Shown: in pieces, positions 8,589-20,510 of the stretch | How positions within the stretch are numbered: the first letter of the stretch is position 1 | Layout: every line of letters begins with the position of its first letter | DNA from: Eledone cirrhosa | Taxonomy: Eukaryota | Reading direction: 5' to 3' | Assembly (NCBI GenBank): GCA_964016885.1 | Contig: CAXHJY010001392.1 | Location: 1 to 20,966, forward strand | DNA length: 20,966 nucleotides | Notes under the pieces: generated by a model | Told to the model about the DNA's origin: nothing | Seen by the model: only the letters and a program-made list of their open reading frames with translations | The model's database searches: none | Position numbers and translations under genes: made by a program

Positions 8589-8647
<59 letters not shown>

Positions 8648-8651
8648 CATA

Positions 8652-8728
8652 CAGGGTGTCCCCAAAAATGTATACACACTTTGATTATATTTATGTTGAA
8701 GCGTGTATACATCTTTTGGAGCACCCTA
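8652..8728. mobile_element. Tc1/mariner-type MITE (77 bp)
   Basis: Imperfect terminal inverted repeats cagggtgtccccaaaaatgtatacac / gtgtatacatcttttggagcacccta. TA dinucleotides on both sides (8650-8651, 8729-8730). Confidence 0.75.
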
Positions 8729-8743
8729 TATATGTTTGCGTCA

Positions 8744-8787
<44 letters not shown>

Positions 8788-8874
8788 GGTACGTTATTCC
8801 GGGTTGAATCGGAGGTAACCACAGTAAGTAAGGTACTCAATACATAGCAGAGTATAAAAGTTTTAATATAGATG

Positions 8875-8925
8875 AGATTCTACAGCACTAGAACTGTTTC
8901 ATTCTTTAGAAATCATCAGGAATCT
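8875..8925 (-). ncRNA. Type I hammerhead ribozyme (near-canonical)
   Basis: Minus strand: agattc CTGATGA t-ttc-taaa-gaa-t GAAA cagttctagtgctg TA gaatct. Perfect 6-bp stem I, stem III acag/ctgt, GUA triplet. The 10.1-11.1 position is U-U. Confidence 0.8.
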
Positions 8926-8947
8926 GGGTATCAAAAAATAAATATGG

Positions 8948-9009
8948 TATTTATAGTTCTCTTCAGGTGGTAGAAGAGGGTAGGGAGTGGAATGGGTGTA
9001 GGTCATTGG
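8948..9009 (-). promoter_or_regulatory. Candidate Pol II core promoter upstream of the HHR
   Basis: TATAAATA (8955-8948) and CCAAT (9009-9005) on the minus strand, about 30 and 80 nt upstream of HHR stem I. Confidence 0.35.
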
Positions 9010-9101
9010 TTGATAGAAAAGGGGATTCATTAAAAGCTAATTCTTCAAAGCTATAGTTTATATTTAGAGTAACACAGGCAGGAAGAATTCTATAAACAAG
9101 T

Positions 9102-9158
<57 letters not shown>

Positions 9159-9281
9159 ACAACAGTGAGATAAACAGGTACTCAAGTTTCGTTGGGTTCT
9201 GGGCCCCAATACGTTCAGCTTGTCATAAGAAACATAATGTGGTTATTCATACTAAACTCGTCCTATGGACTGAATGCTCTT

Positions 9282-9685
9282 ACTCAGACCGTAAAAGGGC
9301 GTAGCTCTATGCTGCAAAGCATGGTGTCCGACTCTCTACCGATACTGCCAATCCATAAAAATAATAATTGTTTCTACTTTTAGCACAAGGCCAGCAAATT
9401 CACCAGTACATTACTGGTACTTTATTTTATCGACCCCGTAAGGATGAAAGGTAAAGTTAACCTCGGCGGGATTTGAGCTCAGATCGTAAAGGGACGTAAC
9501 TATGCTGGAAAGCATGTCCGACCCTCCACCGATACTGCCAATTCACCATAATAATTGTTTCTACTTTTGGCACAAGGCCAGCAATTACCCAGTGCATTAC
9601 TGGTACTTTATTTTATCGACCCCGTAAGGATGAAAGGAAAAGTTAACCTGGCCGGGATTTGAACTCAGACCATAAAGGGGCGTAA
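9282..9685 (-). mobile_element. Head-to-tail tandem of SINE family A (partial + full + partial)
   Basis: Head only at 9282-9354, full copy at ~9366-9547, 5'-truncated copy at ~9552-9685. A-box-like tggcagtatcgg and B-box gttcaaatcc on the minus strand. Confidence 0.9.
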
Positions 9686-9686
9686 G

Positions 9687-9737
9687 AGTTTCAAAAGATC
9701 CCGTTAAGGGTGAAAACAGCGATTCTTTGCTTAAACT
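9687..9737 (+). ncRNA. Decayed type I hammerhead (family C)
   Basis: agttt CAAAAGA t-ccc-gttaa-ggg-t GAAA acagcgattctttgc TT aaact. Stems I and II are intact and the core has 2 substitutions. Homologous to 11189-11240. Confidence 0.55.
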
Positions 9738-9769
9738 ATATTCTGTTATTTTAATAAATAAATAAATAA

Positions 9770-9800
<31 letters not shown>

Positions 9801-9867
9801 TTCACACGAACATATGTATATACACATATGCGGTGTGTATGTATATATATATACGTATTTGTGTTCA

Positions 9868-9908
<41 letters not shown>

Positions 9909-10120
9909 TTATATATTTATGTGGTGTGTATGTATATATATATACGTATTTGTGTTCATGTGTGTGTGCATGTATTTGTATGTATATATATATATATGTG
10001 TGTGCACATGTACGTGTGTGTATATATATATAGGAACGATCGACTTTCGTCAAATCGGACCGAGGGAACAATGTTTCCGTTGGTCTTTCCAATTGCTATC
10101 GGTCGCAACTCCAGGTAGAA

Positions 10121-10236
10121 GGAGCAACGTGAAATAAAGTGTCTTGCTCAAGGACATAACGCATGGCCTGGTCCAGGAATCGAACTCACAACCTTACGAT
10201 TGTGAATCCAATTCTCTAACCACTCAGCCACACGCC
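10121..10236 (-). mobile_element. tRNA-derived SINE family B, 5' part (CORE-like domain)
   Basis: A-box tggctgagtgg (10230-10220) and B-box gttcgattcc (10185-10176), followed by gtccttgagcaagacacttt. Confidence 0.85.
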
Positions 10237-10241
10237 TTCAC

Positions 10242-10382
<141 letters not shown>

Positions 10383-10727
10383 CTGTCAGCGTTATCTCCT
10401 GTGAGATCTTTATAATCTAGCTTTGGTCTATCATTATATCATTTGTCTCATTGAAACATCTCAAATGATTATCGCGTTCATCTGACCTGGTTGACATGTT
10501 TAGGGGTCAGGGGTCAGATGTCAGGACGAACTAGCTTAAGCTATGAGATGGTTGGGAGGGAGAGAGAGAGGAGTTCAGACAAAAGAAGGAGGTGGAAAAC
10601 GAAGAGGAGAAGGAGGGGATTTACGGAAGGAGGTTTGTTTTGCAAATATATACACACATGCGTATATATATATGTATGTATGTATGTATATATATATATA
10701 TGTATATATACATATATATATATATAC

Positions 10728-10763
<36 letters not shown>

Positions 10764-10764
10764 G

Positions 10765-10830
<66 letters not shown>

Positions 10831-10900
10831 CATATATTTCGTTTCTGAATTTGTTTAGCAAGATACTTTATCTGAAATCGTGTGTTGAAACCGATATTGT

Positions 10901-10948
<48 letters not shown>

Positions 10949-10987
10949 TATACATATATACACACACACACACATATATATATACAC

Positions 10988-11030
<43 letters not shown>

Positions 11031-11127
11031 TCCATACATACACTCACATATATATACTCACTCACATAAATATACATCATCATCGTCGTTTAACGTCCAT
11101 TTTCCACGCTATATATATGCGTGTCTG

Positions 11128-11174
<47 letters not shown>

Positions 11175-11188
11175 TTTAATAACAAATT

Positions 11189-11240
11189 AAAGTTTAAGCA
11201 ATGAATCACTGCTTTCACCCTTAACGGGATCTTCACCTTT
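11189..11240 (-). ncRNA. Decayed type I hammerhead (family C)
   Basis: Minus strand: aaag GTGAAGA t-ccc-gttaa-ggg-t GAAA gcagtgattcattgc TT aaacttt. Quasi-palindromic stem III; C3 and part of stem I are lost. Confidence 0.55.
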
Positions 11241-11492
11241 ATAATTATTACTATATATATATTAGTTTTGCGAGGTTTTTTATATGAAATCGTGTGTCGA
11301 AACAAATATTGTTATACTTGGGGAGGGTCATATTTGTGTAATATTGCCAGAATTAATAACAGAACACACTCACTGTTTGGTTGGTTTTCGCTTCTAGCTG
11401 TCTTTTATATCGGTAATCTAACTTACTCGTCCCTCAATGTTGCCATTGACTGACCGACGGTCAAAAAATTATATAGATACAATATAGACACA

Positions 11493-11555
11493 AACACATA
11501 TATATAGTTTATCATAAATCTTTCGTTGCACATCTGCAACATCGTCAGTGGTGTT
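11493..11555 (-). ncRNA. Type I hammerhead with intact core and disrupted stem I
   Basis: Minus strand: aacacca CTGACGA t gttgca-gatg-tgcaac GAAA gatttatgataaac TA tatata tgtgtt. 6-bp stem II and quasi-palindromic stem III. Confidence 0.7.
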
Positions 11556-11632
11556 ATATTTTCCTCCTGTTGTGTTGTATGTCTACGCCATTTTTATTCA
11601 GTCTGTCTATATATTTATTTATATATACACAC

Positions 11633-11743
11633 GTGCTCTGATTTGTTGACCAGTGGTGAACAATGTATTGGAGATCGATTGACGCAACATCAAGCGATTA
11701 GCGAACTCTAGACACACCTGATCAACGAAACAATTGTTAGTAC
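11633..11743 (+). ncRNA. Decayed type I hammerhead with long stem II (family D)
   Basis: gtgct CTGATTT gttgaccag...ctgatcaac GAAA caattg TT agtac. Homologous to 20019-20139. Confidence 0.55.
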
Positions 11744-11796
11744 TTTAAATAAAGCCCTTATTGTACAGCCAACCATGTTACTTTTCTTTCTTTAAC

Positions 11797-11842
<46 letters not shown>

Positions 11843-11846
<4 letters not shown>

Positions 11847-12108
11847 ATTAAATAAATGGAAACTATATTTATAAAACCATATTTATTTCATTATATATAT
11901 TTCAGGGATATCATATTAACAATATGCTATGCCTTCCTCAGACAAAATACAATATAAACAGTTTTATAGATAAATAGATTCGACATACCGTAACAACATC
12001 GACTTGCATTTGAAGAGGTTGATTTGGCAGCAAATATTTGTCGAGTGCTTTTATATCAGTTATAAATATTTACTAGTTGTAACCCAACAATTTTAAATAT
12101 AACTTTCC

Positions 12109-12112
<4 letters not shown>
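11843..12112. mobile_element. Diverged, deleted copy of the 18112-18525 palindromic element
   Basis: 11850-11990 matches the reverse complement of ~18288-18425, and 12036-12112 matches 18450-18528. (TA)n on both sides. Confidence 0.8.
11884..11949 (-). ncRNA. Type I hammerhead ribozyme (family A)
   Basis: Minus strand: tattttgt CTGAGGA aggcatagcatatt-gtt-aatatgatatccct GAAA tatata TA atgaaata. 8-bp stem I, stem II with 12 of 14 positions paired, palindromic ATATATAT stem III. Confidence 0.85.
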
Positions 12113-12141
<29 letters not shown>

Positions 12142-12145
<4 letters not shown>

Positions 12146-12185
12146 GTCCAGAAGTAGCCGTCGAAACGGCTTGAGCTCAGCCGTC
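12142..12185 (+). mobile_element. Fragment of the 4442 element (hammerhead 3' half)
   Basis: ttcagtccagaagtagccgtc GAAA cggcttgagctcagccg TC matches 4490-4533. Confidence 0.75.
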
Positions 12186-12199
12186 TGTGTGCGCGGGTT

Positions 12200-12945
<746 letters not shown>

Positions 12946-13104
12946 TCAGTTTATGTGTAAAGAATTAACAAGGAGAAGATCCCTACTATCACCTCTCGCC
13001 CCGTGTCCCCCAGTTTATAGCGACATAATTGCAGGGAGAGGTCTGATGGCCGTAGGGATAGGAGTGGTCAATTATAGTTAAATATAGGATATGGTGGTGC
13101 GCTG

Positions 13105-13850
13105 GGGTGGGTTGTTGTGGTGGTGGATGTGTGGTGATGGTGGTTGTGGTGATAGATGTGGTGGTGGTGGTGGTTGTTGTTGTGGAGGTGGTGGTGGTGG
13201 TGGTTGTTGTGGAGGTGGTGGTGTTGTGATAGATGATGTGTGGTGGTGGTTGTGGTGGTGATAGATGTGGTGGTGGTGGAGGTTGTTGTTGTGGAGGTGG
13301 TGGTGTTGTGATAGATGTTGTGATGGTGGGTGGTGGTTGTTGTTGTGGAGGTGGTGGTGCTGGTTGTTGTCGTGGAGGTGGTGGTGTTGTGATAGATGTT
13401 GTGGTGATGGTGGGTGGTGGTGTTGTTGTGATAGATGTTGTGGTGGTGGTGGTTGTGGTGGTGATAGATGTAGTGGTGGTGGTGGTTGTGGTGGTGGTGG
13501 TGGTTGTTGTGGAGGTGGTGGTGGTGGTGGTGGTGTGCTAGATGTTGTGGTGATGGTGGGTGGTGGTTGTTGTTGTGGAGGTGGTGGTGGTGGTGTTTGT
13601 TGTGGAGGTGGTGGTGTTGTGATAGATGTTGTGGTGATGGTGGGTGGTGGTGGTTGTTGTGGTGATAGATGTAGTGGTGGTGGTTGTGGTGGTGATAGAT
13701 GTAGTGGTGGTAGTTGTTGTTGTGGAGGTGGTGGTGGTTGTTGTTGTGGAGGTGGGGGTTGTTGTGGAGGTGGTGGTGTTCTGATAGATGTAGTGATGTT
13801 GGTGGTTGTTGTTGTGGAGGTGGTGGTGTTGTGATAGATGTTGTGATAGA
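13105..13850 (+). repeat. Degenerate (GGT/GTT)n repeat punctuated by gatagatg
   Basis: Recurrent gttgtggaggtggtggtgttgtgatagatg. Confidence 0.92.
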
Positions 13851-16130
13851 TGTCTATATTGTTCTTTTGTTGTGTTGTTATGTCTCATATATTGTTGTAT
13901 ATTGTTGTGTTGATGTGATGTCTATATTGTTCTTTTGTTGTGTTGTTATGTCTAATATATTGTTGTACATTGTGTTGATATGATGTCTATATTGTTGTAT
14001 ATTGTGTTGATGTGATGTCTATATTGTTCTTTTGTTGTGTTGTTATGTCTAATATATTGTTGTATATTGTGTTGATATGATGTCTATATTGTTCTTTTGT
14101 TGTGTTGTTATGTCTAATATATTGTACATTGTGTTGATATGATGTCTATATTGTTGTATATTGTGTTGATGTGATGTCTATATTGTTCTTTTGTTGTGTT
14201 GTTATGTCTAATATATTGTTGTATATTGTGTTGATATGATGTCTATATTGTTCTTTTGTTGTGTTGTTATGTCTTATATATTGTTGTGTTGATGTGATGT
14301 CTATATTGTTCTTTTGTTGTGTTGTTATGTCTCATATTGTTGTATATTGTTGTGTTGATGTGATGTCTATATTGTTCTTTTGTTGTGTTGTTATGTCTTA
14401 TATATTGTTGTATATTGTTGTGTTGATGTGGTGTCTATATTGTTGTATATTGTTGTGTTGATGTGATGTCTATATTGTTCTTTTGTAGTGTTGTTATGTC
14501 TTATATATTGTTGTATATTGTTGTGTTGATGTGATGTCTATATTGTTCTTGTGTTGTGTTGTTATGTCTTGTATATTGTTGTGTTGATGTGATGTCTATA
14601 TTGTTCTTTTGTTGTGTTGTTATGTCATATATTGTTGTATATTGTGATGTCTATATTGTTCTTTTGTTGTGTTGTTATGTCTAATATATTGTTGTATATT
14701 GTTGTGTTGATGTGATGTCTATATTGTTCTTTTGTTATGTTGTTATGTCTCATATATTGTTGTATATTGTTGTGTTGATGTGGTGTCTATATTGTTGTAT
14801 ATTGTTGTGTTGATGTGATGTCTATATTGTTCTTTTGTAGTGTTGTTATGTCTTATATATTGTTGTGTTGATGTGATGTCTATATTGTTCTTTTGTTGTG
14901 TTGTTATGTCATATATTGTTGTATATTGTGATGTCTATATTGTTCTTTTGTTGTGTTGTTATGTCTAATATATTGTTGTATATTGTTGTGTTGATGTGAT
15001 GTCTATATTGTTCTTTTGTTGTGTTGTTATGTCTTATATATTGTTGTATATTGTTGTGTTGATGTGATGTCTATATTGTTCTTGTGTTGTGTTGTTATGT
15101 CTTGTATATTGTTGTGTTGATGTGATGTCTATATTGTTCTTTTGTTGTGTTGTTATGTCATATATTGTTGTATATTGTTGTGTTGATGTGGTGTCTATAT
15201 TGTTCTTTTGTTGTGTTGTTATGTCTCATATTGTTGTATATTGTTGTGTTGATGTGATGTCTATATTGTTCTTTTGTTGTGTTGTTATGTCTCATATTGT
15301 TGTATATTGTTGTGTTGATGTGATGTCTATATTGTTCTTTTGTTGTGTTGTTATGTCTCATATATTGTTGTATATTGTTGTGTTGATGTGATGTCTATAT
15401 TGTTCTTTTGTTGTGTTGTTATGTCTCATATATTGTTGTATATTGTTGTGTTGATGTGGTGTCTATATTGTTCTTTTGTTGTGTTGTTATGTCATATATT
15501 GTTGTATATTGTTGTGTCTATATTGTTCTTTTGTTGTGTTGTTATGTCTAATATATTGTTGTATATTGTTGTGTTGATGTGATGTCTATATTGTTCTTGT
15601 GTTGTGTTATTATGTCTTGTATATTGTTGTGTTGATGTGATGTCTATATTGTTCTTTTGTAGTGTTGTTATGTCTTATATATTGTTGTGTTGATGTGATG
15701 TCTATATTGTCCTTGTGTTGTGTTGTTATGTCTCATATATTGTTGTTTTGTGTGTTATTATATCTATGTTGTGTTGTTTGTCATATCTATGTTGTTGTAG
15801 TGTTGTTATGTCTAATATACTGTTGTGTTACTGTTATGTCTAACACTGTTGTGGTGTCGTTCTGTTGTTTATGTCAAATATATTGTTGTGTTATGTCTAA
15901 TATATCGTTGTGTTGTTATTATGTCTAATATATTGTTGTTATTGCAGTAGGGTTTTTGTGTTTATTGTTGTGTTTGAATTATCCTTGTGTTATTATGTCT
16001 GTGTTGTTGTTATGTCTGTAATATTGTTGTGTTGTGTTGATTGTTATGTCTGTTGTGTTGATCGTTGTTTGATTTATACTTATGATATTATGTCTGTGTT
16101 GTTGTTATGTCTGTCTTTGTTGTTAACGAT
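13850..16130 (+). repeat. ~66-68 bp tandem minisatellite, decaying after ~15730
   Basis: Unit tgatgtgatgtctatattgttcttttgttgtgttgttatgtctcata(ta)ttgttgtatattgttgtgt. The 22-aa periodicity in ORF 15158..15361 reflects the 66-bp unit. Confidence 0.96.
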
Positions 16131-16229
16131 AGTGTAGTGTTGTGATACCATAATATAATGTTCTGTTGTTGTTCTTCTAATTGTTGTTCTGTTTGGGGCT
16201 GTTTTTAGCGGGTAGGGGGTGAGGGTGTT

Positions 16230-16720
16230 TACACCAAACCCTCGCACCCATCAATCCTTCTTTCGCCACCCAACCCCGTCTCCACCTTCTTCCTTACAAC
16301 TCCCCACCCCACCCATCAACCTCTCCTAATGTCTTTACTGTTTTACAACCAGGTCCTTCCTCGCAGCCGCCTCCTCCTCCTCCTCCACCAACACACTCCC
16401 CCCCCCTTCATTTCCCATCTCCCACCTCTACCTTACTCCTCCCACCCCCTCGAAAACTCCTGTCCCTACATCTGTTATTATTTCACCTCACCCACCTCTT
16501 CCCTCCCCCTCACATGTAAAACACATTAAATATATTGACTCCTCCTACCACACCTATTTCCCCCTCCTCCTCCTCCTCCTCTCCCTCCCTTTAATATATC
16601 CTCTACAACTGATCACATCACCACCCCTCCCACCACTTCTACAGACACCTTCGATGCAACTTTCCCTCTAACCGCTCCTCCGGGAGCTATCTATTTATCT
16701 ATCTATCAATCTCCCTCACC
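16230..16720. other. C/T-rich low-complexity tract
   Basis: Strong pyrimidine skew with (CCT)n and C runs. Confidence 0.7.
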
Positions 16721-16739
16721 TTGTGTCAATCTGTGTATC

Positions 16740-17575
<836 letters not shown>

Positions 17576-17750
17576 TTTAAATCTCGTAACTTATGAATTC
17601 AACAAACAAATAGAGAGATTGATCAAATAAGAGTCAGACCAAAGAATGAGTTTTACAGTAGATTGGAAGCACTCAACGGGAAATAATTTTCTGGAGTTAT
17701 TAAAATTAAAATATAAGTATTAATAAAATAGATGTTCTTTTGATCAATTA

Positions 17751-17805
17751 CATTTTATTATACATATTTCAGAGGTACAACAGTACGTCCTCATCAGACA
17801 AAATA
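17751..17805 (-). ncRNA. Type I hammerhead ribozyme (family A), mirror copy
   Basis: Exact reverse complement of 17917-17971. Confidence 0.85.
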
Positions 17806-17916
17806 TAATGATACATGGCATACCCTGAGATGTTAAATGGTTAAGATTTAATCAAGCTAGATTACCTTGATTAAATCTTAACCATTTAATATCTCAGGGT
17901 ATGTCATGTATCATTA

Positions 17917-17971
17917 TATTTTGTCTGATGAGGACGTACTGTTGTACCTCTGAAATATGTATAATAAAATG
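17917..17971 (+). ncRNA. Type I hammerhead ribozyme (family A)
   Basis: tattttgt CTGATGA ggacgtac-tgtt-gtacctct GAAA tatgta TA ataaaatg. Stem I can be extended (atcatta/taattgat). Predicted cleavage after 17963. Confidence 0.85.
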
Positions 17972-18016
17972 TAATTGATCAAAAGAACATCTATTTTATT
18001 AATACTTATATTTTAA

Positions 18017-18054
<38 letters not shown>

Positions 18055-18111
18055 AACGCCATCTATATCCACACACTCTCTCTCTCTCTCTCTCTAAATA
18101 TATATTTATAT

Positions 18112-18520
18112 ATGTAGAGGTTATATTTAATTTGTTGGGATACAAAAAGCAAAATATTTTTATAACTGATATAAAGCACTCAACAAATTATTGGAGTAAA
18201 AATACGATATTTTAATAAATGGAAACTATATTTATTTCATTATACATATTTCATGGAGCTTCCAACCGACATGGTCGCATTCTTTAAGGGTATGTCAATA
18301 TTTGTTTATAAAACTGATCTATATTATATTTTATCTGATGAAAGCGCACCATAATTTGCTTTGGTGTCCTTGAAATATCTATAATGAAATAAATATGGTT
18401 TTATAAATATAGTTTCCATTTATTAATATATCGTATATTTACTCCAAAAATTTGTTGAGTGCTTTATATCAGTTATAGAAATATTTGCTTGTTGTATTCC
18501 AACAAATTAAATATAACCTC

Positions 18521-18525
<5 letters not shown>
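18112..18525. mobile_element. Inverted-repeat element with hammerhead, embedded in (TA)n
   Basis: Imperfect arms at ~18112-18253 and ~18371-18525 (14-nt indel) around a ~117-nt spacer. Confidence 0.85.
18327..18391 (+). ncRNA. Type I hammerhead ribozyme (family A)
   Basis: tattttat CTGATGA aagcgcacca-taatttgctt-tggtgtcctt GAAA tatcta TA atgaaata. 8-bp stem I, stem II with 9 of 10 positions paired. Predicted cleavage after 18383. Confidence 0.85.
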
Positions 18526-18599
<74 letters not shown>

Positions 18600-18859
18600 C
18601 AGCGCCATCTATATCCGTTCTATTTCTCTCCACTCTACACCAACACACATTATACACCAGTGCCCCCTATACACAGAAATCCACATCACTCCTCGTGTCT
18701 CTACTTCTCTTCCTTCTGTCAATAATTTCTCGCTTGTTTATTCGTCAATCAAACTTCCCCTCCTCCTCCCCCACTCTTTTAACTTTCTCATTCACTCTCC
18801 CTCTTCAGTGATCCTGTACGCCTTATTTTCTCCGCTCTCTTTGTCCATTCTGTCTTTGT

Positions 18860-19400
<541 letters not shown>

Positions 19401-19910
19401 CGTGGTCCGTAAAAATGCCTAGAAACGTCAAAATATAACGTAAGATGTAATTAAAAAAAGAGGGTGCATCTTATGCGAAGGGGCTTCCAATAGGTAGGCA
19501 AATATGGAATATTGTTATTAATAAGTTAGCGTTAAAAAAATATTTATATTGCCACGAAAAAAGGTATTAAAAAATCGCGGAAGATATTACTATTCCGCGA
19601 ATATGCGGTGGTTTCCACGAACAATTATTTGTTAGGTTCGAAAGAAAGTTCCACCAATAATCTGGACTGCGAATGCCCGGGGTACGATATATATATATTG
19701 TAGAAAACTTATAATTAAACAATTGTTTGGAAAGAGAGATATATTTTAATTATATCTCATATGAAATAATACAACTGGCTTTCCACAAAATACATATAGT
19801 TAGCACCCCAAACACAAAATTGGGATTATACTAAGGTATATCCTATTGTTTGTTGAGTGAGATGATAGCCAGTCAGAGTTTAGCTTAAAGCTATCTCTGT
19901 TATTGTATTA

Positions 19911-19975
<65 letters not shown>

Positions 19976-20018
19976 GAAAGAAGAGTGACACGGTTTGCTA
20001 TACAAAAATGGTTTTTAA

Positions 20019-20139
20019 TCTCACTGCTGCCAATTGTTTCTCTGAACTGGTTGGTCTAAAGATCGCTATCCGCTTATTTTCACGTTACTCGATCGCCAAT
20101 ACAAAGTTATAACCAGTCAGTTCATCGGAGCTTGCGAGA
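20019..20139 (-). ncRNA. Decayed type I hammerhead with long stem II (family D)
   Basis: Minus strand: tctcgcaagct CCGATGA a-ctga-ctggtt...aaccag-t-tcag-a GAAA caattg GC agcagtgaga. Lies in island 19973-20257, which has (TA)n on both sides. Confidence 0.6.
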
Positions 20140-20257
20140 ATGAAAAGAATATATTGTTGAGTCAAACTTAGCCAAGCGTTGATATCATTCACTACCCGGA
20201 GTACCATAACTGGACTACACTTAAGTGGAATACATATAACAATAATTTGTTACCCCG

Positions 20258-20510
20258 TATATATATATATATATATATATACATACATATACATACATAT
20301 ATACATACATACATACATATATATATGTATACATACATATATATATATATATATATATGTATACATACATATACATACGTACATATATATATATATATAT
20401 ATATGTATACATACATATACATACGTACATATATATATATATATGTATACATATATATATGTATGTATACATACATATATATACATACATACATATATGT
20501 ATACATACGT

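Follow-up and report, generated by a model that had tools for sequence, protein, structure and literature searches.

A head-to-head pair of hammerhead-bearing repeat copies, probably of Penelope-like origin, in microsatellite-rich animal DNA

A stretch of 20,966 nucleotides, the whole of which is referred to here as the window, contains a near-perfect palindrome with the same hammerhead-like motif on both of its strands. This raises the questions whether the palindrome is real, how it came about and whether either strand could yield a self-cleaving RNA. The window is animal DNA dense in microsatellites, and these, together with SINE-like repeats, suggest an octopus as the host. We consider it likely that the palindrome (element A) is a head-to-head pair of hammerhead-repeat copies, that these represent the pLTR end module of a Penelope-like element (PLE), and that they probably arose in one insertion via fold-back of the cDNA.

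Element A consists of two arms of 162 nt each, which differ at three sites (17818/17904, 17832/17890 and 17857/17865) and enclose a centre of 3 nt (Table 1). The first-pass annotation had described arms of 159 nt with two mismatches in a palindrome of 327 bp, which is the same structure once the near-centre mismatch is joined to a 9-nt loop. Self-complementary 12-mers number 242 in element A, whereas none of 1000 base shuffles had more than 14, and folding of the two strands as hairpins gave −244 and −238 kcal/mol (z of −41 and −40), the former value being equalled by none of 100 shuffles. The inverted repeat is far beyond chance. As had been described before, the right arm runs into a (TA)n tract, here (TA)15, and the left copy continues past the palindrome on the minus strand through the GTTGAGTGCTT motif. 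This tail resembles the tail of a neighbouring related element (neighbour B) to a degree which was matched by 4 of 2000 shuffles. Farther out, positions 17595-17612 are identical to the right tail of B at 16 of 18 positions (5 of 2000 shuffles as good), and no match was found to the left tail of B (599 of 2000 shuffles as good) or to the tail of a second neighbour, C (1302 of 2000). The left boundary of element A is uncertain and falls between about 17575 and 17640; with this uncertainty, no target-site duplication was evident by eye. The left end does not lie at a (TA)n tract.

Table 1. Positions of element A, its hammerhead-like motifs and the two related elements in the window
Feature	Position	Strand	Remarks
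Left arm	17698..17859	-	5′-truncated copy of the hammerhead-bearing end module, reading right to left
Right arm	17863..18024	+	second copy of the hammerhead-bearing end module; stops at the short 3′ end of the family
Centre of element A	17860..17862	.	3 nt; 9 nt if the C/C mismatch 17857/17865 is included
(TA)15 microsatellite	18022..18052	.	right junction; likely target site
Tail	17640..17697	-	3′ extension of the left copy only; GTTGAGTGCTT motif (17667-17677) common to B and C
Possible further tail	17595..17639	-	unmatched by family reads; boundary uncertain
Minimal type I hammerhead motif	17913..17975	+	right arm; core 17925-17955
Helix I (right arm)	17913-17924/17964-17975	+	12 bp
CUGAUGA (right arm)	17925-17931	+	
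Helix II (right arm)	17932-17951	+	
GAAA (right arm)	17952-17955	+	
Helix III (right arm)	17955-17962	+	8-nt palindrome; predicted cut after A17963
Mirror hammerhead motif	17747..17809	-	identical in sequence to the right-arm motif; core 17767-17797; predicted cut after 17759
Neighbour B	18098..18539	.	of a related subfamily; arms inverted, at about 18098-18257 and 18367-18539, each with a tail
Neighbour C	about 11843..12112	.	B-like; hammerhead arm on - (core 11900-11941) with short end, tail-only arm on +

The segment 17575-18021 was compared with four public sequencing runs, two of which come from one sample (X1 and X2), one from another organism (X5) and one of which was used as reads (X8). 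Part of the stretch is contained in seven of the ten public runs listed, and none is on record as RNA. Records of the same repeat family were matched in all four runs (1538 contigs in X1, 1664 contigs in X2, 4 contigs in X5 and 2043 reads in X8). No read or contig in these four runs spans the exact centre with both flanks, the best share of words being 0.41, and the left flank of element A is nearly uncovered (depth 0-6), a coverage hole that proves nothing. Inverted PLE structures are moreover known to trouble assemblies, as stated by Craig et al. (2021, PMC8557442), and both points would fit a palindrome that is a mere fold-back artefact of sequencing or assembly. What makes such an artefact unlikely is that the mirror image ends precisely where the family has its natural short end and then enters (TA)n, with neither tail nor flank being mirrored. 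Against it also stand the three sites at which the arms differ, of which two are private left-arm variants, and the fact that B, with an arm divergence of 6%, and C, with non-overlapping arms, share the same plan. Overall, we regard an artefact as very improbable.

The summed contig depth over the arms was at least 10^5 in X1 and X2, where the 16 long pieces shown have a depth of 7-20, and, with depth not being copy number, this points to a family size of the order of 10^4 copies. Two types of 3′ end occur in this family. At the short end, loose (TA)n begins at 18017 in 106 X8 reads and one X5 contig, and at its mirror position 17705 in 11 contigs of X1 and 10 of X2. Like the left arm, other copies extend through 17640-17697. 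The previous suggestion that both ends of the insertion are 3′ ends of the element is thereby supported. Family records match element A only from 17640 on, with other letters beyond this point (38 and 41 contigs, 531 reads), and in the opposite direction copies run upstream of 17863 in 366 X8 reads and in 12 and 13 contigs.

Both arms carry A17704/T18018, a position at which the other base accounts for 99% of the family depth in X1 and X2 and is found in 90 of 91 X8 reads. This shared rare variant indicates that a single template lineage gave rise to both arms. The left arm has G17818 and C17857 as private variants, the family otherwise standing at 99.6% (A at 17818) and 97% (X1), and the third pair, 17832/17890, is polymorphic within the family (C at 56% in X1). 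The divergence between the arms of element A amounts to 1.2-1.9%, compared with 6% plus gaps in B. With the octopus calibration of a JC distance of 0.09 for 25 My quoted in PMC13282606, a calculation by hand gives an age of about 2 My (Poisson range roughly 0.2-7.5 My), provided that the arms were not homogenised and that the host is indeed an octopus. Together, the low divergence and the rare variant uphold the description of the palindrome as young, in the sense that its arms share one recent origin. An origin of the arm differences in A-to-I editing, suggested by both outer mismatches being G-U on the plus strand and by G17818 being private, was not adopted, as the second of these sites varies within the family and two transitions are no proof.

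The shared variant also bears on the idea that element A goes back to two independent insertions, or to a later inverted duplication at the DNA level, during replication or repair and unrelated to retrotransposition. Two related elements do lie within 100 bp of each other, and DNA that is rich in A/T and dense in microsatellites tends to undergo slippage and fold-back repair. Independent insertions, however, would have to account for a common rare variant and identical 5′ points, and a duplication at the DNA level would have no reason to stop at the canonical short end of the family. Either course of events appears scarcely probable.

Two related elements accompany element A in the window. B, only about 75 bp away, has arms which differ by 9 substitutions in 150 aligned pairs and by gaps of 14 and 1 nt. 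It holds one whole hammerhead on the plus strand (core 18335-18375), its left arm stopping just inside the hammerhead, and shows a 4-bp hairpin at the junction and TA-rich ends, with (TA)n at the right one. On B coordinates, the arms of C correspond to 18274-18429 and 18445-18530 and thus do not overlap but leave a gap of 15 nt; a 10-bp palindrome lies at its junction. Each of the three elements contains a head-to-head inverted 5′-truncated copy and has two 3′ ends that face outward; the junctions are of three types: a symmetric duplication in A, an asymmetric duplication in B and a non-overlapping inversion in C. The tail is present at one end only in A and C, and both end types occur in the family. 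A/T-rich or microsatellite targets are likewise common to them, as (TA)n is found at the right end of A, at the right end of B and at both ends of C. A further motif common to A, B and C, GGTATGTC, lies upstream of the hammerhead (17897-17905, 18289-18298 and, on the minus strand, about 11984-11992); farther upstream the three differ. GGTATGTC resembles a splice donor, and the family consensus upstream of 17863 contains a pyrimidine run ending in AG, similar to a splice acceptor. Introns are known from PLE pLTRs.

One could assume that what moves is the short palindrome as such, copied whole in the manner of a fold-back, MITE-like or retrozyme-like element. A centre shorter by 2 nt (at 17861) is indeed found in 3 and 4 contigs with summed depths of 372 and 545, where a single locus has about 7-20, and X1 and X2 each contain one contig of 82 nt that crosses the centre with five gaps. 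These centre-crossing contigs, however, extend by less than 31 letters to one side. Depth drops at the centre to about 1% of the value in the adjacent arm bins (in X1, 1046 at 17862 as compared with 84,000-93,000). The inverted joints in the runs vary widely, the junctions of B and C differ from that of A, and so do the lengths of the centres. It is therefore quite improbable that the palindrome moves as such. A MITE or fold-back DNA transposon in particular was rejected, there being no fixed ends and the junctions and arm lengths varying among A, B, C and the joints in the runs.

These joints provide further insight into the origin of the inversion. Of 15 joints shown (12 further ones exist), 14 run from the antisense side (17665-17854) into the sense arm (17863-17951). 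They occur at varied points and mostly at single-locus depth; five of the 14 have a side of at least 30 letters in any run, and the shorter sides are often repeat-derived. Four of the 14, plus one more, land at 17863-17865. This accumulation hints at a preferred 5′ point and could be explained by the same PLE family inserting in a different way, namely by two cDNAs being primed from the two cut strands on two RNAs of one source locus, both ending at a preferred 5′ end of the RNA, and then being joined. In keeping with this, the anole PLE protein PAc cuts and extends both target strands in vitro, has two reverse transcription start sites, which define the tail, and was modelled as a dimer (PMC11167929); the arms of element A end at two different 3′ ends, and B possesses two tailed arms of unequal length. 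On the other hand, both cDNAs would have to end no more than 3 nt apart, which contrasts with the many copies running upstream of 17863, and the clustering at this point is partly forced, as the reference ends there. We therefore regard priming on two templates as unlikely.

Fold-back of a single cDNA, the reading we prefer, could have proceeded as follows. The protein of an autonomous PLE, acting in trans, would introduce a nick at a (TA)n tract in A/T-rich DNA, and reverse transcription would be primed at the distal start site, the one that includes the tail. The cDNA would extend by about 220 nt or more toward the 5′ end until, some 60 nt upstream of the hammerhead, it meets a small natural hairpin and stops. 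Re-priming of the cDNA 3′ end on itself might then lead to copying back and thereby create the mirror arm, whose junction with the target would lie at the second 3′ end, the internal one without the tail. As judged by eye, 17867-17873 would pair with the family consensus upstream of 17863 as a 7-bp inverted repeat, whose loop contains the centre of element A. The centre observed is 7 nt longer than a clean snap-back on this hairpin would leave, so that extra or non-templated bases have to be assumed. Beyond this locus, one may speculate that the hairpin, which lies some 60 nt upstream of the hammerhead, marks a hot spot at which reverse transcriptase stops and re-primes, mass-producing near-perfect palindromes of 300 bp throughout the genome; this we consider doubtful.

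The first-pass annotation had named fold-back and twin priming side by side. For element A, fold-back fits better. L1 twin priming on one RNA, the classical case, inverts without duplicating; it resembles the elements seen here in having two outward primed ends and suits the non-overlapping arms of C, and it differs from element A, which is fully duplicated.

The assignment of the family to the PLEs is one that we infer from its anatomy. Among 67 listed frames of at least 70 aa in 8600-20300, none was recognised by eye as a reverse transcriptase or GIY-YIG frame, and two short frames upstream of B and C, tested as possible ends of an endonuclease, gave no Pfam match. An inverted 5′-truncated copy beside the 5′ end, a tail often present at one end only and a bias for microsatellites or (TA)n are standard features of PLEs (Craig et al., 2021, PMC8557442). 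In addition, abundant head-to-head inverted structures with palindromes at their junctions were ascribed to self-priming, which was argued to take place on an antisense RNA template and not on cDNA, and small RNAs were reported from Penelope copies (Arkhipova et al., 2013, PMC3846280). Compared with the EN+ PLE insertions described in both papers, element A is alike in its head-to-head inverted 5′-truncated copy, its junction palindrome, its one-ended tail, its (TA)n target and its hammerhead within the repeat. It differs in comprising the end module only, without an ORF, in being fully symmetric on the 5′ side and in a tail of 58 nt or more, where 30-40 bp are usual for PLE tails. Most likely, element A is an ordinary, published form of PLE insertion and as such a dead retroelement stump.

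A relation to non-LTR retrozymes was also considered. These are likewise non-coding, carry a type I hammerhead and have been proposed to derive from PLEs (bioRxiv 10.64898/2026.07.22.740005; PMC7229834). Retrozymes, however, form head-to-tail tandem arrays (bioRxiv 10.64898/2026.07.22.740005), whereas element A is an inverted pair and can thus not supply the two ribozymes on the same strand that unit-length circles need. A tandem retrozyme was rejected, as the window contains no tandem array of the module. Pattern scans of metagenomes returned no locus and then two, which lie in bacterial-type coding DNA without blastn similarity to A, B or C and were put down to chance. Among the papers listed in searches of the octopus and cephalopod literature on hammerheads and Penelope, none describes the family of element A; the main text of PMC13282606 mentions neither a ribozyme nor a palindrome, and its supplements and repeat library may hold the family.

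The hammerhead pattern has four matches in the window, two in A, one in B on the plus and one in C on the minus strand, while 100 shuffles gave none. In element A, the two motifs point outward from the centre, just as had been annotated. All four share the core C3 U4 G5 A6 N7 G8 A9, G12 A13 A14, A15.1-U16.1 and H17, the latter being A. Helix I measures 8-12 bp across these motifs. At the seven outer positions of helix II in A, B and C, 18 of 21 cells are paired and both sides have changed at four of the seven positions; one in 100,000 shuffles paired as well, a count which, the copies being related, is not a probability. The three unpaired cells all belong to one conserved C/C position. This C/C mismatch, at the fourth position of helix II (17935/17948 and the equivalents in B and C), is flanked by covarying pairs and possibly represents a tertiary contact. 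Helix III can pair with itself at 8 of 8 positions in A and C and at 6 of 8 in B.

With this, the motif is a conserved hammerhead-like structure and, as judged from sequence, a putative ribozyme. It shares the CUGANGA/GAAA core, a long helix II and a palindromic helix III with the minimal type I hammerheads of PLEs, and also the occurrence of many variants per genome and of opposite-strand pairs 100-700 bp apart (Cervera and de la Pena, 2014, PMC4209133). Distinct from these are the conserved C/C in helix II, a helix I of 8-12 bp, a helix III palindrome of 8 nt and the pair which closes helix II, being G-U in A and A-U in B and C. The PLE consensus has a G10.1-C11.1 pair at this place and an extra nucleotide after A9, and the motifs in the window are accordingly variants of it. 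An Rfam search of 17862-18520 at E values up to 10 gave four chance matches, none of them to a hammerhead model, and no hammerhead was among the best 150 of 271 matches for the whole window at E up to 1. These 150 were below threshold and mostly miRNA models placed on microsatellites and on the hairpin. A miRNA reading (MIR9408, MIR774) was dismissed, as the scores lie below the gathering score and any perfect hairpin scores likewise. Of the earlier designation as a ribozyme, the presence of the motif on both strands holds; the word is a motif call, and the activity that it implies is putative.

If transcription reads through the palindrome, the antisense arm is transcribed first on either strand, and the hammerhead that follows is predicted to be locked in the duplex. 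Either strand is predicted to form one long hairpin (−244 and −238 kcal/mol), as compared with about −13 kcal/mol for the hammerhead region alone, and these models agree with the proposal that read-through RNA masks the motif. Unconstrained folds did not contain the active hammerhead core, neither in the monomer nor in the homodimer. The companion proposal, that transcripts started in the centre could cleave themselves, found no support: the RNA of a single arm would probably not self-cleave on its own. Its 8-nt palindromic helix III suits dimers, and for a lone minimal hammerhead of PLEs no cleavage was detectable and dimers showed low activity only (PMC4209133). The dimer model is restated in PMC6765202. 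A scan for sigma-70 sites at the centre gave 2 where 1.2 are expected and was discarded, the model being inapplicable to an animal.

As a single locus, element A is of little importance. The combination of three junction types in one window with an abundant family, in turn, offers a test of how PLE inversions arise, which PMC8557442 treats as an open question. If the hot-spot reading were true, tens of thousands of copies could separate cDNA fold-back, self-priming on antisense RNA and two-template priming from each other, and, if the host is a cephalopod with heavy A-to-I editing, they would supply it with dsRNA from all over the genome. The variant of helix II, with its closing pair of a purine and U and its conserved C/C, would be a small addition to the catalogue of PLE hammerheads if it cleaves.

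Further repeats were observed elsewhere in the window. A SINE-like repeat of 186 bp, which we take to be typical of octopus genomes, is present in two tandem copies and one further dispersed copy (9282-9685 and about 19070-19240). A tRNA-derived SINE-like stretch at about 10040-10235 has a B-box-like sequence near 10175 and ends in (TG)n. By eye, a stretch of about 45 bp was seen twice, in diverged form and 430 bp apart (about 10845-10905 and 11280-11320). Finally, a minisatellite at 13849-15826 shows higher-order periods of 33, 68 and 284 bp and is preceded by a (GTG)n-rich tract (13117-13828).
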